Below are positions 6,405 through 31,509 of a stretch of DNA of 32,000 nt, piece after piece. This DNA comes from Bellilinea caldifistulae. Lineage in GTDB: Bacteria; Chloroflexota; Anaerolineae; Anaerolineales; Anaerolineaceae. The number at the start of each line of letters is the position of its first letter. Positions within the stretch are counted from its first letter, which is position 1. The notes under the pieces are model-generated. The model ran no database searches and had not been told where the DNA came from. It worked only from the letters and a program-made list of their open reading frames with translations. Position numbers and translations under genes: made by a program. The stretch lies in the NCBI RefSeq assembly GCF_001306055.1, contig NZ_LGHJ01000011.1, positions 150,001 through 182,000 of the forward strand, read 5' to 3'.

Positions 6405-7991
6405 TCAATGAACCGCTTCGGGTTGCGGCTGGGCTTCGACGACCAGAACGCCGTACTCAATCGAATCAGTCAGCGCGCGCCACGAGGCTTCGATGATGTT
6501 GGTGCTGGCACCGACCGTCCCCCAGGCACGGTGGCCGTTGCGGGTTTCGATCAGCACGCGGGTGGTTGCACTGGTACCGTTGTTGCCGTCCAGAATGCGC
6601 ACCTTGTAGTCCGAAAGGTGAAAGCGGGCAATTTGCGGGTAGTAGGGCAGCAGCGCCTTGCGCAGGGCGGCATCCAGCGCCGCCACCGGCCCGTTGCCCT
6701 CCGCGGCGGTGTGGATTAACTCGCCACCAACCCGCACCTTGACGGTTGCCTCGGCAATCATCCCCCGCCCGGCGCGGTGTTCCACCTCAGCGGTGAAGTC
6801 CACCAGTTCAAACGGTGGCTGATAATCGGCTTTCTGGCGCAGCAGCATCAGCATGACCGAAGCATCGGCCGCCTCGAACGAAAAACCTTTGGCTTCCAGC
6901 GCCTTAACTTCTCGCAGTGCCTGATTGAGATTGACCTGATCGTCAATTTCAATCCCGTTTTCCTCGGCCTTGCTGAGCAGATTACCCCGTCCGGACAGTT
7001 CCGAAACGACCACCTGCGAGCGGTTGCCGACCAGAGCCGGGTCAATATGCTGGTAGGAACGCGGCGTGCGGCGCATAGCGGCCACATGAATGCCGCCCTT
7101 GTGGGCAAAGGCATCCCGTCCCACATAAGCAAGATGTTCATCCGGAGCCAGGTTGGCGATCTCGGCTACGTAGTGGGCAAGGTCGGTCAACTGAGCCAGA
7201 TGACCGGACGGCAGGCAGGTGTAGCCCATCTTCAATTCCAAATCGGGGATGACCGAACACAGATTGGCATTGCCGCAGCGTTCGCCGTAGCCGTTGATGG
7301 TGCCCTGCACCTGCACACATCCCTCCCGCACGGCTGCCAGCGAATTGGCCACCGCGCACTCGCCGTCGTTGTGGGTGTGGATACCCAGTCGGGCATGCGG
7401 AAAGCGCGCCCGTACCGCCCGAACAATCTCGCTCACCTCCCACGGCATGCTGCCGCCGTTGGTATCGCACAGCACCAGCGTCTCGGCTCCACCGCGCAGT
7501 GCCGCCGCCAGCGTTTGCAAGGCGTATTCGGCGTCCTCCTTGTAACCGTCAAAGAAGTGTTCGGCATCGTAAATCACCCGCCGGCCCTGCGCGGTCAAAT
7601 AGGCGAGTGATTCCTCGATGATGCGCAGGTTGTTTTGCGGGGTGGTGCGCAGTACTTCATGGACATGCAGCAGCGAGGATTTACCCACCACCGTGCAAAC
7701 CGGCGCTTTCGAGTCCAGCAAGGCACGAATGTTGTCATCCTCGGCAGGGGTCTTGTTGACCGCGCAGGTCGCCCCAAAGGCGGCAATGACGGCGTGCTTC
7801 CATTCCATCTCGGCAGCGCGGGCAAAAAACTCGGCATCCTTGGGGTTGGAGCCCGGCCAGCCGCCTTCGATGAAGTCCACCCCAAACTCATCCAGCCGTT
7901 TGGCAATTGCCAGTTTATCATTCAGCGAAAGGGAAATGTCAGTACGCTGGGTACCATCGCGCAGGGTAGTATCGTAGATTTCGATTTTCAT
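6405..7991 (-). CDS. cimA: (R)-citramalate synthase (long LeuA-like form)
   Basis: 528 aa with an [16 protein letters not shown]-terminus, an HTHNDGE metal site and a C-terminal LeuA-dimer-type regulatory domain. It is distinct from the 539-aa leuA in the same operon, and its length and N-terminus fit the CimA family. Confidence 0.8.
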
Positions 7992-10276: not shown

Positions 10277-11896
10277 TTAAACCGGCTGAACTGCCGACTG
10301 CTCCACACTGCCGTACTGACCGCTGGCCACCAATAACTTGTTCAGGGCAGCCAGGTAGGCTTTGACACTGGCCACCACAATATCCGTATCGGCACCGTAG
10401 CCGCCAAAGGTACGCGGCACTTCAGCCTCGCGCTGCGGGCTGATTTGCAGCAAGGCGTCAATGCCCTCGATGCGCACGGTTACTTCTCCCAGCGCATCAA
10501 TCCCCTCGGTTACGGCGTGCACGACGAATTCCTGCAAGGTATTGGGGGCTTTGACAATCGCATCAATGGCTTTGTAGGCCGCATCCACCGGCCCGGTGCC
10601 CACCGCTGCGCTGACATGCAGCTGACCATCCGGGCCGCGCAGGCGCACGGTGGCGGTGGGCATGCCCATCGTCCCGCAGGCCACCTGTAAACCGTCCAGC
10701 GCAAAGAACTCGCGCGGCTGGTACAATTCGTCCGAAACCAGCGCCTCCAAATCGGCATCGGTGATGGTCTTCTTGCGGTCGGCAAGGTGCTTAAACCGTT
10801 CAAACACCTGATCCATTTCAGACTCATCCAGCGCGTAACCCAGCGCCGCCAGACGGGTGCGCAGGGCGTGCCGCCCGGAGTGCTTGCCCAGAACCAGTTT
10901 GCTCTGTGTAGCCCCAACTGTTTCGGGACGCATGATCTCGTAGGTCAGGGAATGCTTGAGCATCCCGTCTTGATGAATGCCGGCTTCGTGGGCAAAGGCA
11001 TTCGCGCCGACAATCGCCTTGTTGGGCTGCACCGGCAAACCGGTGTAGTTGCTGACCAGTTTACTGATACGGCTGATCTGCGTCGTATCAATGCCGGTGT
11101 GCAGGCCGTAAAACTGCGGGCGGGTGTGGAGCGCCATGACGACCTCCTCCAGGGCGGTATTGCCAGCCCGCTCGCCGATACCGTTGATGGTCACTTCGGC
11201 CTGGCGGGCGCCGGCCCGCAAACCGGCCAGCGTGTTGGCGGTTGCCAGCCCCAGGTCGTTGTGGCAATGCACCGAAACAATGCAGTTTTCGATGCCCGGT
11301 GTGTTCTGGATGATTCCGGCAATCAGCGCGCCAAATTCATCCGGGGTGGTGTAGCCCACCGTATCGGGGATATTCAGGGTGGTTGCCCCGGCGCGGATGG
11401 CAACCGCCAGTACCTCATAGAGGAATTCCGGGTCACTCCGCCCGGCGTCCTCCGGGCTGAACTCGACATCCTCGCACAGACTGCGGGCGTATGCCACCAT
11501 TTCGGCAACCCGTTCCAACACCTGCTGACGGGTCATGCGCAGTTTGTACTGCATGTGAATTTCCGAAGTGGCTAAAAAGGTGTGGATGCGCGGTCGCGCA
11601 GCCGGCTGAACCGCCTGCCAGGCTTTGTCAATATCGCTTTTGGTGGCACGCGCCAGCCCGCAGATGATCGGCACCCGCCCGCCATCCGCCGAATTACCGA
11701 CTTCGATGGCAATCCGGCGCACGGCTTCCAGATCATCCGGCGAGGCCGCCGGGAAGCCAGCCTCGATCACATCCACCCCCAGCCGCGCCAGCCCGCGCGC
11801 CACTTCCAGCTTTTCGGCGCTGGTCATGGTCGCACCGGGCGACTGCTCGCCATCTCGCAGGGTGGTATCGAAAATGCGTACATAGGGTTCGCTCAT
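10277..11896 (-). CDS. leuA: 2-isopropylmalate synthase
   Basis: Contains [11 protein letters not shown] and HCHNDLGLA motifs plus a C-terminal LeuA allosteric domain. The start is ATG 11896, preceded by AGGAGGA; the 31-codon upstream extension in the track overlaps ilvC. Confidence 0.93.
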
Positions 11897-11925
11897 CGCT
11901 TTCCTCCTGATGAACCGATAAAAAA

Positions 11926-12987
11926 TCAACCGGCGGTTTTTTGCCAGTTTTCGGGGCGCAGGAAGCGCACCATTGCCCCGGCCTGCCACATCTCCGATTC
12001 CCGCATTTGCCGCAGTTCTTCCGCTAATTTTTCCTGATAATCCGGCTGGCTGTTGGCTTCCAGCACGCGGCGGGTTTCTTCCCCGCTGGCAACCGACTGA
12101 TACAGGCGCTCAAAGACCGGCAGGGTAGCGTTGCGGAACTCATGCCGCCAGTCCAGTGCCCCGCGTTGGGCGGTTGCTGAGCAGTTAGCGTACATCCAGT
12201 CCATCCCGTTTTGAGCCACCAGCCGAATAAGGCTTTGGGTCAATTCCTCGACCGTTTCATTAAAAGCCTCCGACGGGGTGTGGCCGTGTGCGCGCAGCGT
12301 TTGATACTGAGCCTCCATGATGCCGGCCAGCGCGCCCATCAGCACGCCGCGTTCACCGGTCAGGTCGGAATACACCTCGTGCTCAAAGGTGGTTTCAAAC
12401 AGATAGCCGGAGCCGATGGCGATGCCCAGCGCCAGCGTGCGCTCGCGTGCCCGGCCGGTGTAATCCTGCGCCACCGCAAAGCTGGAATTGATGCCGCTGC
12501 CTGCCAGAAAATTGGCGCGCACGCTGGTGCCCGAACCTTTCGGGGCGACCATCACCACATCCACATAGGCGGGCGGCACGACACCGGTCTGATCTTTGTA
12601 CACCACCGCAAATCCATGGGAAAAATAGAGGGCATCGCCTTCTTTCAGGCACGGGCGAATGCGCTCCCAGGTCAATTTCTGGGCAGCGTCCGATACCAGG
12701 TACTGCACTACCGTACCGCGCGCCGCGGCTTCTTCCATCGAGAACAGGGTTTCACCCACCACCCAGCCATCCCGCTGAGCCTTCTCCCATGATTTGCCGC
12801 CCGGGTTGACCCCCACGATGACCTTGATGCCGTTATCACGCAAATTCAACGCCTGCGCCGGGCCCTGCACGCCGTACCCCAGCACGGCGACCACTTCATC
12901 CTTCAAAACCTCCTGTGCTTTGCTGAGAGGGAATTCCTCACGGGTTACCACTTCTTCTTCAACGCCTGCAAAGTTCATTTTTGCCAT
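11926..12987 (-). CDS. ilvC: ketol-acid reductoisomerase
   Basis: 353 aa with the Rossmann motif LGYGVQG and a typical IlvC core. SD AGGAGA lies 7 nt upstream. Confidence 0.93.
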
Positions 12988-19856: not shown

Positions 19857-22184
19857 TTACTCCGCCGGCCGTAAATAACCCATACCTTTCTTGCCGTCCA
19901 TCCGAATTTCCAGCCGGTGGGCTGGGCGCTCGGCCGGCAGGTGAATGACTTTGATGCACTCCAGCGCCGCCGAATTTTCCTCAATCCAGACTGACCGCTG
20001 GTCAGTTGCCCGGCGCAAAAATGCCAGATTGAGATAATCGTCTTCTTCTTCCGCCGAAACCGCCAGCGGGAAAATGCCCGACTCGACCAGATCCTGAAAG
20101 AAATGCGTGCCGTAGGACGGCTCGGAGGCATAGCCGCCTTTGCGGCTGGTCAGTTCGATCAGCGCGCGGGTGTTGAAAATATCGGCATAGGTGACCGGCA
20201 CACCCTGCATGAAATCGGTCGAGCCCCAGCGCCCCGGCCCGATCAGGACGAAGTTTTTGCCTTCCAGCGCGCGGTTGATCTGGGCAATCCGGCGGGCTGT
20301 TTCGCTGAAATCATGCGCCGAGGGCAGGCGGTAGTATTTTTCCGGATCCACAAAGACGATGTACTCCACCCCCTCCACCACCCCCAGCGGCACCATCCGG
20401 TTGCTGACAAAGATCACATCCTCGTCGCGCACTCCCTCTGGCAACCGCACCGCCAAATCGGCATTCCAGCTGTGATGCGGGCGGCATTGCAGCAGGTGAA
20501 ATTTCAGGTCGGGCTTGCCACCTTCCCCCGGCTGAATCGTCAGGGCAAACTCCACATCTACCGCCGAGTGGTACTCCTCCGCCAATCGGCTCAGAATATT
20601 GCGCAGCAGGGGAACGAAATCGGTTTGCAGCAGCCGTTCAAACGTGACCACGAACTGGCTGGGCTGCAGCGAAAGCCCCAGCGTCAACGGCGGGCGGATT
20701 GTCTCGCCATCGTCCACCGAGATGACCCAGCGCAGTGCCGGAAAGTCCGTCCCCAGCACCTCTTGCACCGGCAGAGTGACCAGCGCATTGCTTTGCAAGT
20801 CAATCACATCCATCTGATGCTGAGAGTACTGGCGGATCGCCTGCGGGGTCACCTCCGGGCGCAGGTTAGGATGACTCAGACCGATCAGGCGGGGGTAATC
20901 GTTGGGGGTGCGTTCCACGGCGCGCGTCCCCAGCCCAACCACCAGGCGGGCAAAGCCCTCCTCCCGGCGCAGGCGCGGGTTCCACACAATCGGGCTGAAC
21001 GAGTAGGCAACGCCGGCTGCTGACGGGAAATACTTCCCCCGATACGGCTGACCCTGCACCTCTTGAATCAGGATCGCCATGCGTTCGTCGTAGTCAATCA
21101 GCCCCATCCGGCGGCGGTACGAAAGCGCATCCGGATTGTAAATGCTGGCATACGCCCGCCGGATTGCCAGAGTCAGGTCGCGCAGGTTTTCTTTGAGGCT
21201 GCCCTGGTTGGGGCAGAAAACGCTCAGGTACTTGCCTGCAAATGACGCGCCAAAATTATCCTCCAACAGGCTGGAAGAGCGCACGATCAGGGGGGTGTTG
21301 CCCACCTCGCGCAGCAGGTCGCGCAGTTGATCGGCAATCTCCTCCGGAAAGCGCCCGCCGGCGTATTTTTCCTGAATCAGCGGGTAATCCTGCCGGATTT
21401 GCTCATCCGATTTGTACTTCTGATTGACGTATTCCAGATCGTTCAGCGCGAGGAAGTCGTAGAACACATCCGCACCGATGAAGTACGAACGTGGCAGGGT
21501 GATGCGCTCGGCCAACTGGGGGACAGTCGCCTGCAGGATTTTATAGGCCAGCAGCATTCCGGCGGCTTTGCCGCCAATTTTGCCGCTGCCGATGCGGTGG
21601 CGGATGATGTAGCTGAAATCGGCAGCCGTGAACCAGCGTTTGGCAATTCGGATGAAGCCCAGCTGGTCACTCAGCAGGCTTTTGAGCAGCACCACCCGCA
21701 GCTCTTCGAGATGGTGCTGCACCTGAGCGCGCTGCTCCGGCGGCAGAGATTCGTAGGCTTCTGCCTGACGCAGTACCATCTCCAGCGGAGCCAGTTCCGG
21801 GTTGAAACGCAGGCTGATTTCCGATCCAACCGGCGGGCGCTCTCCTCCGCGATCGGCCAGCACATCATCTACAATCTTGTGCAGCAGTTCAATCGGCAGG
21901 TTGTAGGCAAAGTAAAAATCGGTCAGGATGCGACGGATGCGGTGATAGCGCAACTCCCAACGTTCGCTGTCCTCCGGACGCTGCTCATCGCCCAGCCCTT
22001 CGCGCTTCTGCGATTCGATGGCCTTTTCGCGGATTTCCTGCTCGAACCGCTCCGGCGAAATGATCCCACGCTGGAACAACTCCTCGCGCATCCGCCGACG
22101 GATGGAGGAAGCCAGCATGGGGTACTGCGCCAGCAGCAGGTAAATTTCCAGAATTTTCGATGACTCAGGGGGAATAACCGACAT
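19857..22184 (-). CDS. PEP/pyruvate-binding (PPDK_N, ATP-grasp) domain protein lacking recognisable swivel-His and PEP-utilising domains; function unknown
   Basis: 775 aa with GSGKIGGKAAGMLLA and VRSSSLLEDNFGASFAGKY motifs, typical of the nucleotide-binding domain of pyruvate,water/phosphate dikinases. A ~190-aa N-terminal region and a ~250-aa C-terminal region are unassigned. Confidence 0.75.
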   Translation of the reverse strand: MSVIPPESSKILEIYLLLAQYPMLASSIRRRMREELFQRGIISPERFEQEIREKAIESQKREGLGDEQRPEDSERWELRYHRIRRILTDFYFAYNLPIELLHKIVDDVLADRGGERPPVGSEISLRFNPELAPLEMVLRQAEAYESLPPEQRAQVQHHLEELRVVLLKSLLSDQLGFIRIAKRWFTAADFSYIIRHRIGSGKIGGKAAGMLLAYKILQATVPQLAERITLPRSYFIGADVFYDFLALNDLEYVNQKYKSDEQIRQDYPLIQEKYAGGRFPEEIADQLRDLLREVGNTPLIVRSSSLLEDNFGASFAGKYLSVFCPNQGSLKENLRDLTLAIRRAYASIYNPDALSYRRRMGLIDYDERMAILIQEVQGQPYRGKYFPSAAGVAYSFSPIVWNPRLRREEGFARLVVGLGTRAVERTPNDYPRLIGLSHPNLRPEVTPQAIRQYSQHQMDVIDLQSNALVTLPVQEVLGTDFPALRWVISVDDGETIRPPLTLGLSLQPSQFVVTFERLLQTDFVPLLRNILSRLAEEYHSAVDVEFALTIQPGEGGKPDLKFHLLQCRPHHSWNADLAVRLPEGVRDEDVIFVSNRMVPLGVVEGVEYIVFVDPEKYYRLPSAHDFSETARRIAQINRALEGKNFVLIGPGRWGSTDFMQGVPVTYADIFNTRALIELTSRKGGYASEPSYGTHFFQDLVESGIFPLAVSAEEEDDYLNLAFLRRATDQRSVWIEENSAALECIKVIHLPAERPAHRLEIRMDGKKGMGYLRPAE

Positions 22185-22265: not shown

Positions 22266-23528
22266 TTACGCCCAGCCGCGCAGCCGAACCGCTTCCGCCA
22301 CCCGGCTAACCGCCACCAGATAAGCCGCCTTGCGGTAGTCCACACCGTGCTGCCGGGCAACCTCATGGACCTTCCAAAACGCACCGGTCATGCGCTGGTC
22401 AAGCCGCTGATGCACCTCGTCCTCATCCCAGTAATAGCCGTAGGCATTTTGCACCATCTCAAAGTACGAAACGGTAACGCCGCCGGCGTTGCACAAAAAG
22501 TCGGGCAGCACGACGGCTTTTTTGGCAAACAGCACCGCGTCGGCTTCCGGCGTGGTCGGGCCGTTGGCCAGCTCGGCGATGAACCGCGCCTTGATTCGCT
22601 CGCAATTTTCCTGATGGATGGCGTTTTCCAGCGCGGCCGGAATCAGCACCTGCACATCCAGTTCAAGCAGTTCGGCATTGCTGACCGGCTGTGCGCCGGG
22701 GAAGTTGACCACTGAACCGGTGCGCTGCTTGTGCGCCAGCACCGCCTCGTAGTCCAGGCCGTCCGGGTTGTAAATACCGCCGCGCGAGTCGGAAACCGCC
22801 ACCACCTTGAGTCCGAGCAGCTCAGCGCCCAGTTTGTGGGCAAAAGAACCGGCGTTGCCGTATCCCTGAATGGCGGTCGTTGCGCCGCGCAAATCCACCT
22901 GATGGGCTTTGGCGGCCTCGCGCAGACAGTACATTCCGCCGCGAGCCGTGGCATCCCCGCGCCCGGCCGAGCCGCCCAGCGCCAGCGGTTTGCCGGTGAT
23001 CATCCCAAATTCGGTGTAACCGCGCTGGTAGGAAAACTCATCCACCATCCAGGCCATGATCTGGGGAGTGGTGTACACATCCGGCGCCGGTACATCCGCC
23101 TCGGCGCCCAAAATGCGCCCCACCTGACGAATGTAGGCGCGACTGAGCCGTTCCAGTTCACCGGGAGAAAGCTGCTTGGGGTCGCAGATGATTCCGCCCT
23201 TGCCGCCCCCCAGCGGCAAGTCCATCACGGCGGTTTTCCAGGTCATCCAGGCTGCCAGCGCACGCACGGTATCCACCGTTTCCTCGCTGTGGTAGCGGAT
23301 TCCGCCCTTGCACGGACCGCGCGCATCGTTGTACTGAACGCGAAAGCCTTGAAAAATGCGCACCGTGCCGTCATCCATGCGCACTGGAAGGGTGACATGC
23401 AATTCACGCATCGGCCAGCGCAGCAGCTCATGCACCGCCGCGTCTAATTGCAACAGGCGCGCGGCTTCATCGAGTTGCTGCTGAGCCACCCGAAACGGGT
23501 TATAGGGTTGAGAAGATGAAGCAGACAT
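22266..23528 (-). CDS. gdhA: NAD(P)-dependent glutamate dehydrogenase
   Basis: Contains the PLGGGKGG active-site Lys motif of Glu/Leu/Phe/Val dehydrogenases. The start is ATG 23528, preceded by AAGGAGGAAG; the 20-codon upstream extension in the track is unlikely. Confidence 0.92.
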
Positions 23529-23835
23529 AAAAAACTTCCTCCTTGGCGAAGTAGAATGCTGGCGAATCACCTCTTTTGGAGGTAGCAAACCGATAGGATA
23601 AGTTAAAGTGCAGCGCCGCGAGTCCTCTACGGCGTCTGGGTGATTTGCTCCGCCGGCACAGGCAGAGAACCCTCCCGGCGGCAGCCCTCGCTTGAAATCA
23701 ACGCGTGGGGGGAGTTATTGTAATAATCGGGGCGTGGGGTGAACGGCTAACGGGAACCCGCTGCAACCGTCTAGTGGAAAAACGCAGCAACCAATTACCT
23801 CAAATCCGGACGGTCTGTTTTCAAAAAGTTGGGCT

Positions 23836-24208: not shown

Positions 24209-25456
24209 ATGACACAAACTGTGCCCCTTTCCACCCTGATAGACCTGCTCAACCGGCAACCGGACCCCGAATCATGGGGCGATTCGACCCGTGCCATTCA
24301 TGCCGGCAGCCAGCGCGAAAAACCCTACCACGCCATCATCGAACCGCTGGTACAAACCGCCACCTACACATTTCGCAACAGCGAGGAAGTGATTGCCTAT
24401 CAGGACGCTCACAGCCGCGGCCTGCCCACCGACCGTCTCGAATACGGGCGCTACGGCAACCCGACCATCGCCGCCTGCGAGGCACGCCTGGCCGCCCTGG
24501 AAGGCGCCGAAACCGCCATCCAGTTTGCCAGCGGCATGGCCGCGATTACCACCACCCTGCTGGCCTGTCTGCGCAGCGGCGACCATCTGGTGATGACCGA
24601 CGACTGTTACCGTCGGACGCGCCAGATCTGTCTGGAATTTTTAGCGCGTTTTGACATTCAGACCAGCGTCGTACCCATCGGCGATTACGCTGCGCTGGAA
24701 GACGCCATCCGCCCGAACACCCGCTTGCTGCTCTCCGAAACGCCCACCAATCCCTATCTGCGCGTGCTGGATCTGGAACGATTTTCTGAAATCGCCCACC
24801 GCCATCGGCTGATCAGCGTGGTGGATACCACCTTTGCCACCCCCTTCAACCAGCGCCCGCTGGATTGGGGTGTGGACATCGTCATTCACTCGGCCACCAA
24901 GTATCTGGGCGGTCACAATGACCTTCTGGCCGGCTTCGCTGCCGGCAGCGCCGCGGCTCTGACTCCTGTGCGTGAACTGCACAACATTCTTGGCGCCACC
25001 GCCGACCCGCACAACGCCTACCTGCTGCTGCGGGGCATTAAGACCCTCAGCATCCGGCTGGGGCGCCATAATGAAAACGGGCAACGGGTCGCCGAATTTC
25101 TGGAATCCCACCCGGCTGTCGAGCAGGTCTGGTATCCCGGTCTGCCCTCCCATCCCGATTACGCAGTGGCCAGCGCGCAGATGAAAGGCTTTGGCGGTGT
25201 GGTTTCTTTCACCGTGCGCGGCGGCCTGTACGATACCGCTCGCTTCATTGACCGCCTGCAAATCCCCTACATTTCGCCTTCGCTGGGCGGAACGGAGAGT
25301 CTGGTCATTCAACCGGCACTGATGTCCTACTACGATGTCCCACCGGAAAAACGACAGGCGCTGGGCATCCGCGACAATCTGGTGCGCCTGTCATTGGGGC
25401 TTGAGGATGCCGACGACTTGATCGCAGACCTGAAGCAGGCTCTCGAAGCGTTGTAA
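24209..25456 (+). CDS. Cys/Met-metabolism PLP-dependent enzyme (cystathionine gamma-synthase / O-acylhomoserine sulfhydrylase family)
   Basis: 415 aa with the PLP-lysine signature DIVIHSATKYLGGHND and an N-terminal STRAIHAG motif. The exact reaction cannot be assigned by eye. Confidence 0.88.
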   Translation: MTQTVPLSTLIDLLNRQPDPESWGDSTRAIHAGSQREKPYHAIIEPLVQTATYTFRNSEEVIAYQDAHSRGLPTDRLEYGRYGNPTIAACEARLAALEGAETAIQFASGMAAITTTLLACLRSGDHLVMTDDCYRRTRQICLEFLARFDIQTSVVPIGDYAALEDAIRPNTRLLLSETPTNPYLRVLDLERFSEIAHRHRLISVVDTTFATPFNQRPLDWGVDIVIHSATKYLGGHNDLLAGFAAGSAAALTPVRELHNILGATADPHNAYLLLRGIKTLSIRLGRHNENGQRVAEFLESHPAVEQVWYPGLPSHPDYAVASAQMKGFGGVVSFTVRGGLYDTARFIDRLQIPYISPSLGGTESLVIQPALMSYYDVPPEKRQALGIRDNLVRLSLGLEDADDLIADLKQALEAL

Positions 25457-25469
25457 AACCCTCCCTCGG

Positions 25470-25838
25470 TTGACGTCACCACGAGCGAGCGCGGCAATCT
25501 CCCGCAGGGCCGGGAGGGAGATTTCTCGCTTCGCCCGAAATGACGTTTACGGGTATACGTCACCGCGAGCCGCCGCAGGCGGCGTGGCGGTCTCCGGCAG
25601 GGCCGTTGCGGAGGTTGGGCGGGAGACCCCTCACTCCGTTCGGGGTGACATTAGCTGGTTTACGTCACAGCGAGCCGCCGTCAGGCGGCGTGGCGGTCTC
25701 CGGCAGGGCCGTTGCGGAGGTTGGGTGGGAGACCCCTCACTCCGTTCGGGGTGACATTAGCTGGTTTACGTCACCGCGAGCCGCCGTCAGGCGGCGTGGC
25801 GGTCTCCGGCAGGGCCGTTGCGGAGGTTGGGTGGGAGC
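25470..25838 (+). repeat. tandem array of hairpin-forming repeat units: one divergent ~86-nt unit followed by 2.7 near-identical copies of a 105/106-nt unit
   Basis: Unit starts (TACGTCAC...) are at 25556, 25661 and 25767. The copies differ at only 2-3 positions. Internal stems are GCCGCC-GTCA-GGCGGC, GGTCTCC...GGAGACC and GGTGAC...GTCACC. The array starts 14 nt after the PLP-enzyme stop. Confidence 0.9.
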
Positions 25839-26234
25839 CCTCCCAGCGCGGCACCAAGCGCAGTGCGGTGCAAGTGTCGCTGATGCTCGATAGGACGAAC
25901 AAATTGCCAAAAACTACAATCCTACCGGCAGGCGTTTCAATTCGGCAGGATTTTTTCCATAGAGGACTGCTCTTGCCCTGTGGGTAAGGGAATTTTATTC
26001 TTTGGTGACCGGTCGGCGGGCAGGGAATTCGGCGCGTACAAAGAATGTATAAGGTTAGGGAACCAGAGGGATGTTTTTCCGGCTGGCTGGTGTTATAGTA
26101 ATCTTAGATGCAGGTGGGAAAACACAAGCAAAGGAGACAGCCACACCCATCGCCTGCCGGCAGCTAAAGCGTGAATTATTCGGTAAAAATAATTTTTCGT
26201 CAGGCTGCTCCAATTCAAACAAGGAGTAATCAAT

Positions 26235-27041
26235 ATGACTTCGGAATCAAATGGTCCCCTCGTTGCCGCCGCTGCAGAATTGAAAAAATTTCAGGGGCTG
26301 CGCCGTTTTAACCTGATCATGGGCTTTCTGCACCTGATTCAGGGCATTTTCATGTGGGTAGTCAGCAATGATAGAACCTACCCGATTTTCACCAACTACC
26401 TCACCTTCGACCGGGCAACCTTCACCCTGACACCCAACCCACAATTGCTCTACGAACTACCCTTCGGACCGGCTGTAGCCGTCTTCCTGCTCATCTCAGC
26501 CGTTGCCCACTTCTACCTTTCCACCATTGGCTACCGCCCGTATGTCGAAAATCTGAAGAAGGGCATGAACCCCATCCGCTTTTACGAATATGCTCTCAGT
26601 TCCTCGTTGATGGTTGTGCTGATCGGTATGCTGGTCGGCATCTGGGACCTGGGGACGATGATCGCCATTTTCGGCATCAACGCCATGATGAACCTGTTTG
26701 GCATCATGATGGAAGTTCACAACCAGACGACCACGCGGACGAACTGGCTGGCGTTTATTTACGGCTGTCTGGCAGGTATTGTGCCGTGGATCGTGATTTT
26801 CCTGTACTTCATGGGAGCGGTCAACTCCGGCGACGCCAAACCACCGGCTTTTGTCTACGCCATCGTACCCACCCTGTTTGTGATGTTCAACATCTTTGCC
26901 GTCAACATGGTGCTGCAGTACAAAAAGGTCGGCCGATGGAAGGACTATCTCTACGGCGAACGGGTGTATATCATCCTCAGCCTGGTTGCCAAGACCGTGC
27001 TGGCATGGCTGATCTGGTTCGGCACACTCGCCCCGGTGTAG
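26235..27041 (+). CDS. heliorhodopsin (retinal-binding 7-TM photoreceptor family)
   Basis: 268 aa and 7 hydrophobic segments. Block-by-block similarity to heliorhodopsin 48C12 as I recall it: RFNLIMGFLHLIQ, AVAHFYLS, RFYEYALSSSLMVVLIG, IFGINAMMNLFG, CLAGIVPWIVIFLY, and GERVYIILSLVAKTVLAW with the Schiff-base Lys (K253, codon 26991..26993). SD AAGGAG lies 8 nt upstream. Confidence 0.9.
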   Translation: MTSESNGPLVAAAAELKKFQGLRRFNLIMGFLHLIQGIFMWVVSNDRTYPIFTNYLTFDRATFTLTPNPQLLYELPFGPAVAVFLLISAVAHFYLSTIGYRPYVENLKKGMNPIRFYEYALSSSLMVVLIGMLVGIWDLGTMIAIFGINAMMNLFGIMMEVHNQTTTRTNWLAFIYGCLAGIVPWIVIFLYFMGAVNSGDAKPPAFVYAIVPTLFVMFNIFAVNMVLQYKKVGRWKDYLYGERVYIILSLVAKTVLAWLIWFGTLAPV

Positions 27042-27260
27042 AAATACCCGCGCCACAGCCCTTGCCATCGCGAGCAGCATCCAGAACTCTCTGCCATAAC
27101 CACCCGCCGCGGATGGGTCATCGGCAATAGCAGACAGCGCCTTTTCAACACCACTCCATCGGCGCACGCTCAAGGCCAACCATTTCGAACCTTACAAATT
27201 CGTTAACCCAACCCGGACTACCCATCCAGCTCTTGAAAAAAATTTTTTGGGTATATTTTA

Positions 27261-27288
27261 ATAATACGGCAATTCACATCCGTATTAT
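27261..27288. promoter_or_regulatory. 9-bp perfect inverted repeat ATAATACGG-N10-CCGTATTAT upstream of the LamG-like gene
   Basis: The arms are at 27261..27269 and 27280..27288, in an A/T-rich tract that also contains TTGAAA and TATATT promoter-like hexamers. Confidence 0.3.
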
Positions 27289-27318
27289 CAAATATCTTAC
27301 ACGGTTGAGCTGCGGTAC

Positions 27319-28260
27319 ATGAAACGGATGGGGCTAATTGGATTCGGGGCTGTTTTGCTGGCACTTATCCTGCCTGCCCAACCCAGGCAGGTTGTACTCT
27401 CTGTCGCGCCGGCTCAATCCAATCAAACCTCGTTGCGTTTCTTCGGCACGGGCAGCGGCGATATTGACCGGGTTAAGATTCCTCTGGATAATCCACATCG
27501 TTCGGTGGATGTCGGCGGCGATTTCACCATTGAGTTCTGGCTCAAAGCCGCACCCTCGAGTAACCCCAGCCCGTCCTGCCAGGAAAGCGCCTCCGAAGAC
27601 ACCTGGACAAACGGCAACATCATCCTCGACCGCGACATCTTTGGCGACGGCGATTACGGCGATTACGGCATCTCGCTTTACCGCGGTAGGATTGCCTTTG
27701 GTGCGGCGGTGGGCAGTAACCGCCGCACCATCTGCGGAATAAGCGACTTGCGAGATGGTCAGTGGCATCATGTAGCCGTCACCCGCCAGAGCGGGAATGG
27801 GCAGATGCGCATTTTTGTGGACGGGCAATTGCAAAAAACCGAAAACGGACCTGGCGGGAATCTCTCTTATCGGGACGGACGCAATACTTCTTACACGAAC
27901 AGTGACCCTTATCTGGTCATCGCCGCCGAGAAGCATGACTACGACCCCAGCACCTACCCATCCTTCAACGGCTGGTTGGACGAGTTACGCATCTCCAACG
28001 TCATACGCTACACAGCAAACTTTACCCCGCCGAGTATGCCCTTCAACCCCGATGCCAGCACGGTTGCACTTTATCACTTCGACGGTACGCCGGGCCCCTG
28101 TAACGGAACGGTCAGCGATGCTTCCGGTCAGGGCAATAACGGTCAATGCAAGCATGGCGGCACATCCCCAAATCTCGGCCCGCAGTATGTGCTTGACAGT
28201 CCCTTTACCGGTAGTATCATCTATGACTTTAAAATTTACCTGCCTTTGGTGCGCCGCTAA
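27319..28260 (+). CDS. secreted concanavalin-A-like lectin/LamG (Laminin_G_3-type) domain protein
   Basis: 313 aa with an N-terminal signal-like peptide (MKRMGLIGFGAVLLALILPAQP). It has the FTIEFWLK...DGQWHHVAVT...MRIFVDGQL pattern typical of LamG_3 domains. Confidence 0.75.
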   Translation: MKRMGLIGFGAVLLALILPAQPRQVVLSVAPAQSNQTSLRFFGTGSGDIDRVKIPLDNPHRSVDVGGDFTIEFWLKAAPSSNPSPSCQESASEDTWTNGNIILDRDIFGDGDYGDYGISLYRGRIAFGAAVGSNRRTICGISDLRDGQWHHVAVTRQSGNGQMRIFVDGQLQKTENGPGGNLSYRDGRNTSYTNSDPYLVIAAEKHDYDPSTYPSFNGWLDELRISNVIRYTANFTPPSMPFNPDASTVALYHFDGTPGPCNGTVSDASGQGNNGQCKHGGTSPNLGPQYVLDSPFTGSIIYDFKIYLPLVRR

Positions 28261-28512: not shown

Positions 28513-28680
28513 ATGTCCCTAACATCCTGTCCCGAATGCGAAGCCGCCATCGAGCTGAACGATGTCCTCGTCGGTGAAATTGTGGTCTGCCCGGATTGCG
28601 GTGTAGACCTGGAAGTAATCAGCCTTGAGCCACTCCAGCTGGAACTGGCTCCCATGGAAGAAGAAGACTGGGGCGAGTAA
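28513..28680 (+). CDS. lysW: amino-group carrier protein LysW (55 aa, zinc-ribbon)
   Basis: Not in the ORF track because it is under 60 aa. Sequence: [55 protein letters not shown]. It has CPxC...CPxC zinc-ribbon cysteines and the C-terminal EDWGE tail characteristic of LysW. SD GGAGG is present. Confidence 0.88.
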
Positions 28681-28703
28681 GCCCCGCCAAAGGAGAAACA
28701 GCG

Positions 28704-29654
28704 ATGAAAATTGGTGTCCTGCTTTCACGGGTGCGGATCGAGGAAAAGTGGATCCTCGAAGCGCTGGAAAAACGCGGCATCCCCCACGAGCGGATTGACG
28801 ACCGCGAAGCGGTGTTCGATTTTGCCCACCCCGAAAACTGGCTGTCCTACTCCGCCGTGCTGGAGCGCAGCCTCTCGTTTGCGCGCGGCCTGTACGCCAC
28901 CCAGATACTCAACGCCTGGGGCATTCCGACGGTCAACATGGCGCATGTCGCCGCTACCTGCGGGGATAAACTGGCCACTTCGGCTGCGTTGGCGCGCGCC
29001 GGCATCCCTCAGCCGCGCATCAAGGTCGCCTTCACCCCCGAATCGGCACTGCAGGCCATCGAAGAACTGGGCTACCCGGTGGTGTTAAAACCGGTGGTCG
29101 GTTCGTGGGGGCGGCTGCTCGCCAAAATCAACGACCGCGACGCCGCCGAAGCCATCCTGGAGCACAAAGAGACACTCGGTTCTTACCAGCACTCCATCTA
29201 CTACCTGCAGGAATACATCCAAAAGCCGGGACGCGACATCCGCGCCTTTGTGGTGGGGGATCAGACGGTGTGTGCCATTTACCGCACCTCCTCTCACTGG
29301 ATCACCAACACCGCTCGCGATGGCAAGGGAGAAGTCTGCCCAATCACGCCTGAATTGAACGCCTTATGCGTTGCGGCTGCTCAGGCAGTCGGCGGCGGCG
29401 TGCTGGCCGTGGATGTTCTCGAAGACCCGCAGCGCGGCTTTCTGGTCAACGAGATTAACCACACCAGCGAGTTTCACACCCTCGCCCCCACCACCGGGGT
29501 GGACGTTGCCGGCCTGATGGTCGAGTACACCCTCGCCGTTGCCGAGGGTCAAATTCACCCCCCGTTTCCGGCCGTGAGCGCGCCGCAAGTACCCATGGGC
29601 ATCCTGCACACCTCCCCGCTGGGCATCCCCCTGTGGAGGGCAGCCGCCCAATGA
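28704..29654 (+). CDS. lysX: RimK/ATP-grasp ligase LysX (alpha-aminoadipate or glutamate--LysW ligase)
   Basis: 316 aa ATP-grasp protein immediately after lysW, with SD AAGGAGA. Its stop overlaps the next start (ATGA). Confidence 0.85.
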
Positions 29655-30691
29655 GCCGCTTGCGCGTTTCAATCATCGGTGCGGCCGGTTATGTGGGCGG
29701 CGAGTTGCTGCGCCTGTTGCTCGATCATCCTTTCGTGGAAATCCAGCAGGCGACTTCCGGCAGTCACCTCGGTGAATTTGTGTATCAGCAGCACCCCAAC
29801 CTGCGCAAGCGCACCACCCTCAAATTCAGCGACCCTCAGCAGGTTAAACCGTGTGATGTCCTCTTTCTGGCAATGCCGCACGGCGAAAGCCAGCAGCGGA
29901 TCGAAGATTACGCCGCCATTGCCCCACGGATTGTGGACTGCTCGGCGGATTTCCGTCTGCGGGATGCCGAACTGTACCGGCGGTATTACGGAGAGGAACA
30001 CCGCGCCCCGGCCTGGTTGAGTAAGTTCGTTTACGGCCTGCCGGAATTACACCGCGAGGAAATGCGCTCGGCGGCTTACATCAGCGGCGTGGGCTGCAAC
30101 GCCACCGCCTCCATTCTGGCGCTTTACCCGCTGGTCAAGGCCGATGCGCTCGATCTCACCCGCCCGGTGATTGTCGAAATCAAAACCGGTTCTTCGGAGG
30201 GCGGGGCTTCCCCCAATCCCGGCAGTCATCACCCCGAACGGAGCGGCGTGATCCGCACCTTTTCGGCATACGGACACCGCCACACTGCCGAGGTGATTCA
30301 GGAACTCGGTCTGAGCGAGGTTCACCTGACCATGACGGCGGTGGATCTGGTGCGCGGCGCGCTGGCAACCGCTCACGCCTTTTTGCGTCCGGGCATTGGC
30401 GAAAAGGACTTGTGGAAAATCTACCGCCAATGGGCCGAAAGCGAGCCGTTCATCCGGCTGGTACGCGACCGGCGCGGCATTTACCGCGTGCCGGAGCCCA
30501 AAATTCTGGCTGGCAGTAACTACGCCGATGTCGGCTTCGATGTGGACGAATGTTCCGGGCGGGTGATCGGCATGGCGGCGATTGACAACCTGATGAAGGG
30601 CGCTGCCGGTTCAGCCGTGCAGGCGATGAACCTGATGTGCGGTTTTGACGAAACTGCCGGCCTGACTTTTGGCGGATTACACCCCATTTAG
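29651..30691 (+). CDS. lysY: LysW-bound aminoadipyl/glutamyl-phosphate reductase (ArgC/LysY family)
   Basis: Contains the [19 protein letters not shown](P) motif and the GVGCNATA active-site Cys. The start is ATG 29651, overlapping the lysX TGA. Confidence 0.88.
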
Positions 30692-30705
30692 CGGAGGAAT
30701 CACCC

Positions 30706-31509
30706 ATGCTGGTTGTCAAAATTGGCGGCGCCGCCGGCGTCAACATATCTTCCATTTGTGCCGATGTTGCCAATCTGGTCCAACAGGGCCAAAAGGTGGT
30801 GCTGGTTCACGGCGGGTCGGCGGAGGTGAATGAGATATCCACCCAACTCGGCCATCCGCCGCGCTTCGTCACCAGCGAAAGCGGTTTTACCAGCCGTTAC
30901 ACCGACCGGAAGACGCTGGAAATTTTTGCCATGGTTACTGCCGGCAAAATCAATACCCTGCTGGTGGAGCAGTTGCAGAAACATGGCGTCAACGCCTTTG
31001 GGTTGACCGGACTGGACGGGCGCTGGATGATCGCTCATCGCAAGGAAGCCATCCGGGTGGTGGAAAACGGGCGTAAACTGGTGCTGCGGGACGATTACAC
31101 CGGCAAAATCGAGCAGGTCAACCCGGCGATCCTCTCCCTGTTGATCGCCACGGGTTACACGCCGGTGGTAGCGCCGCTGGCGATCTCGCCGAACGGTGAA
31201 GCGCTCAACGTGGATGCCGACCGGGCGGCGGCGATGGTGGCAGCCGCCCTCGGCGCAGCCACCTTAATCCTGCTGACCAATGTACCCGGTCTGATGCGCA
31301 AATTTCCGGATGAAAGCACCCTCATTCATCACCTGCCGCGGGTTGAAGTACAGCGTGCCATTGAGTATGCCGAAGGCCGGATGAAGAAGAAAGTGCTGGG
31401 TGCTGCCGAAGCCCTGCAAGGCGGCGTAAGCCGGGTCATTTTTGGGGATGGGCGCAGCCCCCACCCCCTCGTGGATGCTCTGCAAGGGAAAGGTACGGTG
31501 ATCGAATGA
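30706..31509 (+). CDS. lysZ: LysW-bound aminoadipate/glutamate kinase (ArgB/LysZ family)
   Basis: 267 aa amino-acid kinase fold with VVKIGGA and VLVHGGS motifs. SD GGAGGA is present. Confidence 0.88.

Follow-up and report, generated by a model that had tools for sequence, protein, structure and literature searches.

The open reading frame (ORF) at 26235..27041 encodes, with a probability that we place at about 0.97, BcHeR, the heliorhodopsin (HeR) of Bellilinea caldifistulae. In fact, its protein product is identical to GAP08936.1, KPL76735.1, WP_061912808.1, and UniProt A0A0P6X2C8 from this species, as well as to the entry 'BcHeR [Bellilinea caldifistulae]' (WP_061912808) in supplement file 6 of PMC11109279. 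Moreover, an exact-sequence look-up placed the gene on the 3.70-Mb contig DF967971.1 of GCA_001050215.2, with the same neighbors as in the window (i.e., the whole 32,000-nt stretch of DNA analyzed here). The heliorhodopsin call of an earlier sequence-only reading is correct but not new, the gene being already annotated and experimentally characterized as BcHeR; with the RefSeq name of WP_061912808.1 reading "heliorhodopsin HeR", nothing is added as a gene call. What is new here is that the low GC content of the gene is a composition effect, that its neighborhood is uninformative (each neighbor matched at 0–1 of 80 related loci), and that its chromophore residues are invariant in all 80 relatives.

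Family assignment and chromophore-site residues

When searched against Pfam, the ORF matched PF18761 (Heliorhodopsin) over residues 22-265 and the entire model (positions 1-242 of 242), with an E-value of 1.6e-100 and a score of 335.9 bits against a cut-off of 26.7, which is far beyond chance. Likewise, the NCBIfam HeR equivalog NF038020 gave 378.6 bits against a cut-off of 100, so that both full-length matches lie far above the curated cut-offs. Heliorhodopsin is the only significant family in the HMM search that had been suggested as a check, with no other Pfam or NCBIfam family recognized at E ≤ 1, and type-1 microbial rhodopsins are absent from the Pfam and PDB matches at that same threshold. 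The best PDB matches are all heliorhodopsins, including TaHeR (PDB ID: 6is6; 4.8e-77) and 48C12 (PDB ID: 6su3; 1e-58).

The alignment of the ORF with the solved HeR structures is near-gapless and spans all helices, and it brings H33, H92, E118, S249, and K253 into correspondence with H23, H80, E107, S237, and K241 of 48C12. Pairwise with HeR-48C12 and the Thermoplasmatales HeR, both the TM7 lysine and the TM3 glutamate are in register. Here, the E118 column falls at chain index 114 of TaHeR, which is Glu-108 given a 6-residue tag offset, and it is this Glu-108 that has been named the counterion (PMC9385722). We also noticed that 7clj differs from 6is6 in the aligned region solely at the E118 column, where E is changed to D. 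The four residues singled out beforehand (H33, H92, E118, and K253) are all found at the positions given for them, as are the five motif blocks, namely FLHLIQ (31-36), AVAHFYLS (89-96), RFYEYALSSS (115-124), GIVPWIV (181-187), and GERVYIILSLVAKTVLAW (241-258). The reading frame itself was also given exactly (26235..27041, 268 aa, with the ATG start confirmed), and the AAGGAG found 8 nt before the ATG bears out the view that the gene has a strong Shine-Dalgarno sequence of its own. Nothing that had been named as speaking against a heliorhodopsin turned up, as the best match is to this family and the TM7 lysine and counterion glutamate are both present. The gene and its key residues are as follows.

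26235..27041, plus strand: heliorhodopsin CDS (BcHeR, WP_061912808.1), ATG start, 268 codons, TAG stop
26221-26226, plus strand: Shine-Dalgarno AAGGAG, 8 nt 5′ of the ATG, read directly from the sequence
26331..26333, plus strand: codon of H33 in TM1, the equivalent of 48C12 H23 in the alignment
26508..26510, plus strand: codon of H92 in TM2, the equivalent of 48C12 H80 in the alignment
26586..26588, plus strand: codon of E118 in TM3, the single Schiff-base counterion, aligned with 48C12 E107 and TaHeR Glu-108
26979-26981, plus strand: codon of S249, which forms an SxxxK motif with K253 (S249-L-V-A-K253), aligned with 48C12 S237
26991..26993, plus strand: codon (AAG, at the position given earlier) of K253 in TM7, the retinal Schiff-base lysine, aligned with 48C12 K241 and the TaHeR lysine

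BcHeR is reported as one of the first three heliorhodopsins to be characterized biochemically, its description being that of Shibukawa et al. 2019 (Biochemistry 58:2934). According to the account of that work given in PMC9385722, the retinal of BcHeR is 88% all-trans in light and dark alike, the photocycle lasts longer than 1 s and proceeds with no reported M intermediate, and light-dependent pH changes were not seen, which means no ion transport. The same article relates that recombinant BcHeR binds retinal, and it gives the origin of B. caldifistulae as thermophilic digester sludge, where irradiance is low. The heterologous expression and photocycle recording proposed in the sequence-only reading had, for this exact protein, already been published in 2019, with retinal bound.

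Topology and conservation among relatives

The hydropathy profile of BcHeR has seven hydrophobic segments, and there are 13 lysines and arginines on the loops of the N-terminal side versus 3 on the opposite side. This charge bias accords with the earlier expectation of an inside N-terminus and fits an inverted arrangement of seven transmembrane helices with a predicted cytoplasmic N-terminus. Among the intracellular loops (ICLs) so predicted, the following are positively charged.

Residues 101-115: ICL1, RPYVENLKKGMNPIR, 4 K+R
Residues 230-242: ICL3, KKVGRWKDYLYGE, 4 K+R

For comparison, we used 80 loci from other genomes, nearly all of them Anaerolineae, whose HeRs are 74-89% identical to BcHeR. 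The residues H33, H92, E118, S249, and K253 are invariant in 80 of these 80 relatives, and a lysine or arginine is kept at K108, K109, R115, K230, K231, and R243 in 75-80 of them. Overall, 94 of the 268 positions are invariant, the mean column conservation is 0.84, and an internal stop occurs in a single one of the 80 HeR matches. This pattern indicates purifying selection on the chromophore site and on a putative signaling surface in what is a largely anaerobic clade.

As a separate observation, six of the loci (L011, L012, L058, L062, L070, and L078) carry HeRs that are 77-84% identical to BcHeR on contigs labeled as lying outside Anaerolineae, with labels that include Coriobacteriaceae (a 1.8-Mb scaffold), Treponemataceae, Caldisericota, Anderseniella, and Bathyarchaeia. 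Either these contigs are mis-binned or mislabeled Anaerolineae, or the HeR clade has undergone recent horizontal transfer.

Base composition

The HeR gene had been judged by eye to be less GC-rich than its surroundings, and on computation its GC content is indeed 0.532, below both the 0.592 of the window and the 0.56-0.63 of the neighboring genes. Its GC3, at 0.73, is within the neighbors' range (0.65-0.77), and the lower overall GC is therefore due to the amino-acid make-up of a hydrophobic membrane protein. Horizontal acquisition from a foreign source, as the lower GC might have suggested, was rejected given this neighbor-like GC3, which marks HeR as a long-term resident of the genome.

Gene neighborhood

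The window is an amino-acid-biosynthesis region in which Pfam assigns every large ORF to a family unrelated to retinal or carotenoids, in agreement with the earlier remark that genes for retinal or carotenoid biosynthesis are absent from it. Moreover, no transducer-like gene adjoins HeR in the window. Its genes, and those nearest to HeR with their positions, are listed below.

Minus strand, first part: prephenate dehydratase, ilvE, leuB, a second leuA/cimA-like gene, leuD, leuC, leuA, ilvC
Minus strand, rest: ilvN, ilvB, ilvD, asd, aspartate kinase, 775-aa PPDK_N protein, glutamate dehydrogenase
Plus strand: Cys/Met PLP enzyme, HeR, LamG-domain protein, lysW, lysX, lysY, lysZ
22266-23588, minus strand: glutamate dehydrogenase (GDH), 2.6 kb from HeR
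24209-25456, plus strand: Cys/Met PLP enzyme, the upstream neighbor of HeR
27319-28260, plus strand: LamG/concanavalin-like protein of 313 aa with a hydrophobic N-terminal segment, directly downstream of HeR
28513-31509, plus strand: LysW/X/Y/Z carrier-protein pathway

We compared all 25 window proteins with the 80 related loci by tblastn. Within 10 kb of HeR, the LamG protein, LysW/X/Y/Z, GDH, aspartate kinase, and asd each recurred at 0 of the 80 loci, while a distant homolog of the Cys/Met PLP enzyme (39% identical) lies near HeR at one. A functional link between HeR and its flanking genes was rejected on these numbers (0–1 match per neighbor among the 80 loci). De novo clustering of 2274 flanking ORFs likewise gave no conserved partner, with no family present at more than 10 of the 80 loci. 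The families that do recur are DUF1295 and DUF2177 (8 loci each), AhpC/TSA-like, alpha/beta-hydrolase, and DegV (7 each), DUF4345 (6), and Staygreen (4), of which DUF2177 and alpha/beta-hydrolase belong to the ten HeR neighbor classes already published; none of these ten classes adjoins BcHeR in the window. Since its neighborhood recurs at only 0–1 of the 80 related loci, the context of the Bellilinea HeR is, as judged by this comparison, idiosyncratic and offers no reliable clue to function. The amino-acid-biosynthesis surroundings in Bellilinea are, by this negative synteny result, not to be taken as a functional clue.

Some features of this biosynthetic region deserve mention in their own right. 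The LysW cluster is complete: its lysW gene encodes a 55-aa zinc ribbon, lysX a RimK-type ATP-grasp protein, lysY a semialdehyde dehydrogenase, and lysZ an amino-acid kinase. On the source contig, an Aminotran_3 gene and a Peptidase_M20 gene follow past the right-hand edge of the window. The cluster represents, in a bacterium of the Chloroflexota, a lysine or arginine route of the alpha-aminoadipate type. The 775-aa protein (19857-22184, minus strand) is encoded between aspartate kinase and glutamate dehydrogenase, and the ATP-binding PPDK_N domain (residues 202-582) is the only one recognized in it, leaving about 200 residues with no assigned domain at each end. In addition, two LeuA/HMGL-like synthase genes (6405-7991 and 10277-11989, both on the minus strand) are found within one ilv-leu cluster, and the shorter of the two, which encodes 528 aa, is a candidate citramalate synthase gene (cimA) for a threonine-independent isoleucine route.

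A Staygreen-containing cluster in the closest relatives

In the closest relatives, which are Anaerolineae MAGs with HeRs 83-87% identical to BcHeR, we observed a tight same-strand cluster that runs from an alpha/beta-hydrolase gene through HeR and Staygreen to an AhpC/TSA-like gene. The loci are these.

L009, 8955-11834: cluster locus
L008, 492-2325: cluster locus
L007, 2216-4461: cluster locus
L005, 8071-9357: cluster locus

The Staygreen match (PF12638, Mg-dechelatase-like) has an E-value of 1.2e-50, and the gene starts 25-46 nt past HeR. Such tight adjacency is confined to one sub-clade, with the DNA of L008 and L009 being 95.5% identical, and 4.4 kb separate the Staygreen gene from HeR in L080. 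The hydrolase-HeR-Staygreen-AhpC arrangement is absent from the Bellilinea locus, and our literature search found no paper that names heliorhodopsin together with a dechelatase.

Comparison with other heliorhodopsins

TaHeR from Thermoplasmatales archaeon SG8-52-1 (PDB IDs: 6is6 and 7u55) shares 51% identity with BcHeR over 245 aligned residues. Common to both are the seven helices, the His/His/Glu/Ser/Lys set, and the positive charges of the intracellular loops; both also have slow photocycles, and neither transports ions. In contrast, the N-terminus of BcHeR is longer, as is, by 5 residues, its helix 5-6 loop, and an M intermediate is reported to be absent from it in the published account. 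The founding heliorhodopsin, HeR-48C12 (PDB IDs: 6su3 and 6uh3), is more distant, with 44% identity over 250 aligned residues, and, unlike BcHeR in the published account, 48C12 undergoes light/dark adaptation of its retinal and forms an M intermediate.

Partner proteins are known for several members of the family, these being glutamine synthetase for AbHeR (PMC9529153), photolyase for TfHeR, and the ABC transporter OmrDE for OcHeR. The earlier statement that the role of heliorhodopsins is largely unresolved is outdated to this extent. In other HeRs, positive charges of the intracellular loops serve partner binding (PMC11109279, PMC9529153, PMC9769723), and in OcHeR binding requires the positive charges of the cytoplasmic loops (PMC11109279). 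AbHeR, TfHeR, and OcHeR are of the same family as BcHeR, in which the positively charged partner-binding loops are conserved; however, the partner gene of each lies in the HeR operon, whereas the BcHeR gene stands alone.

Proposed mode of action and alternatives

By analogy with other HeRs, we regard BcHeR as most likely a light sensor that would signal through a partner protein, at what we see as roughly even odds; the model is drawn from the regulation of glutamine synthetase, photolyase, or an ABC transporter by other members of the family. At the chromophore, all-trans retinal is bound as a protonated Schiff base on K253 of TM7, with E118 of TM3 acting as sole counterion and H33 and H92 forming part of a conserved polar network. 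In the published account, light isomerizes the retinal and sets in motion the slow photocycle (> 1 s), with no M (deprotonated) state detected. In the proposed sensor, a long-lived late state of this cycle would change how the positively charged ICL1 and ICL3 contact the partner. Several points weigh against this model, among them that the flanking families of the 80 related loci yield no partner candidate (none at more than 10), that HeR has no transducer-like neighbor and no source of retinal within the window, and that light sensing is puzzling in low-light digester sludge. Why a thermophilic strict anaerobe from dark sludge retains a rhodopsin under strong purifying selection is a question that the field already asks; it also already recognizes those of the retinal source and the signaling partner, and the window makes none of the three more tractable.

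One special case of the sensor model, following a proposal by Bulzu et al. on the HeRs of monoderms, is that the light signal of BcHeR elicits a defense against photo-oxidative damage, and this we consider possible, if on the unlikely side. The clustering of AhpC/TSA-like, alpha/beta-hydrolase, and Staygreen genes with HeR in the closest relatives (83-87% identity) speaks for it, as do the reported transcriptional links of HeRs to peroxiredoxin and catalase (Bulzu et al.). However, these cluster genes do not lie beside HeR in B. caldifistulae, AhpC/TSA is found at just 7 of the 80 loci, and the tight HeR-Staygreen adjacency belongs to one sub-clade. The more specific notion at which the Staygreen/AhpC cluster hints, that BcHeR triggers a light-dependent protection against photosensitizers and oxidative stress, is quite doubtful, with the Bellilinea window itself lending it no direct support. 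If it were true, the Bellilinea sensor would be uncoupled from that cluster and act in trans.

It is unlikely that native BcHeR has no retinal or no light function at all, and is instead a relic or a protein with a light-independent role. Beta-carotene 15,15′-dioxygenase requires O2, and B. caldifistulae is a strict anaerobe. This opposition between the host's lifestyle and the O2-requiring carotenoid-cleavage route to retinal favors a protein devoid of its chromophore, as do the low-irradiance habitat (PMC9385722), the reported lack of a complete retinal pathway in most genomes that have HeR as their only rhodopsin, and the window's lack of any crt or blh gene. Set against these points, the lysine, serine, glutamate, and both histidines are invariant in all 80 relatives, amid a mean conservation of 0.84 and with an internal stop in one, and such purifying selection on the chromophore site argues against a relic. 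Moreover, GC3 matches the genome, as expected of a long-term resident gene, the recombinant protein is reported to bind retinal (PMC9385722), and HeRs are described in the literature as efficient at capturing exogenous retinal.

Very unlikely, in our estimate, is a light-dependent regulation by BcHeR of the adjacent nitrogen and amino-acid enzymes, namely GDH, the Cys/Met PLP enzyme, or LysW/X/Y/Z. The idea draws on the position of HeR inside a 30-kb amino-acid-biosynthesis block, on the binding and regulation by AbHeR of glutamine synthetase, a nitrogen-assimilation enzyme (PMC9529153), and on the linking of HeRs to nitrogen metabolism (Bulzu et al.), yet the synteny is not conserved (0–1 of 80 loci), long spacers (778 and 277 nt) lie on both sides of HeR, and 2.6 kb separate HeR from GDH, which is encoded on the other strand. 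Finally, ion transport gated or driven by light, as in the viral V2HeR3, is extremely improbable for BcHeR, for although some viral HeRs transport protons, the published assays as relayed in PMC9385722 contradict it with no light-dependent pH change, TaHeR and 48C12 as the closest solved relatives are also non-transporting (PMC9385722), and the single-counterion closed architecture of non-transporting HeRs is retained.

Spacers and transcription unit

The intergenic distances on either side of HeR, estimated earlier as ~780 and ~277 nt, amount to 778 and 277 nt, and the NCBI gene calls place no gene in either spacer. Their features are listed below.

25457..26234, plus strand: upstream spacer of 778 nt between the Cys/Met PLP gene and HeR
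25970-25990: terminator-like hairpin upstream of HeR, from a consensus scan
26091-26099, plus strand: extended -10-like TGTTATAGT, recognized by eye only
27042..27318, plus strand: downstream spacer of 277 nt, AT-rich (GC 0.49), between HeR and the LamG-domain gene
27257-27292: inverted repeat just 5′ of the LamG-domain gene

Given these spacers, it is plausible that HeR is monocistronic, and its promoter presumably lies in the last ~250 nt of the upstream spacer, where the consensus scan gave no sigma-70 consensus site on the plus strand upstream of HeR. The scan also detected no canonical intrinsic terminator downstream of HeR, and there may be read-through from HeR into the LamG gene. The possibility that the 778-nt spacer encodes a leader RNA or riboswitch was rejected, as Rfam gave no match, whether at the gathering threshold or at E ≤ 1.

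The upstream spacer also contains a 106-nt unit repeated 2.7 times in tandem at 97% identity (25552-25837), with related sequence beginning at about 25470. No other copy of the repeat core was found in the window, nor does it match an Rfam family. For one unit, folding gave a multi-stem structure with an MFE of -57 kcal/mol (z = -3.1), and 0 of 200 shuffled sequences were equally stable. The repeat may have arisen by duplication, or it may represent a small RNA or a genomic repeat element.
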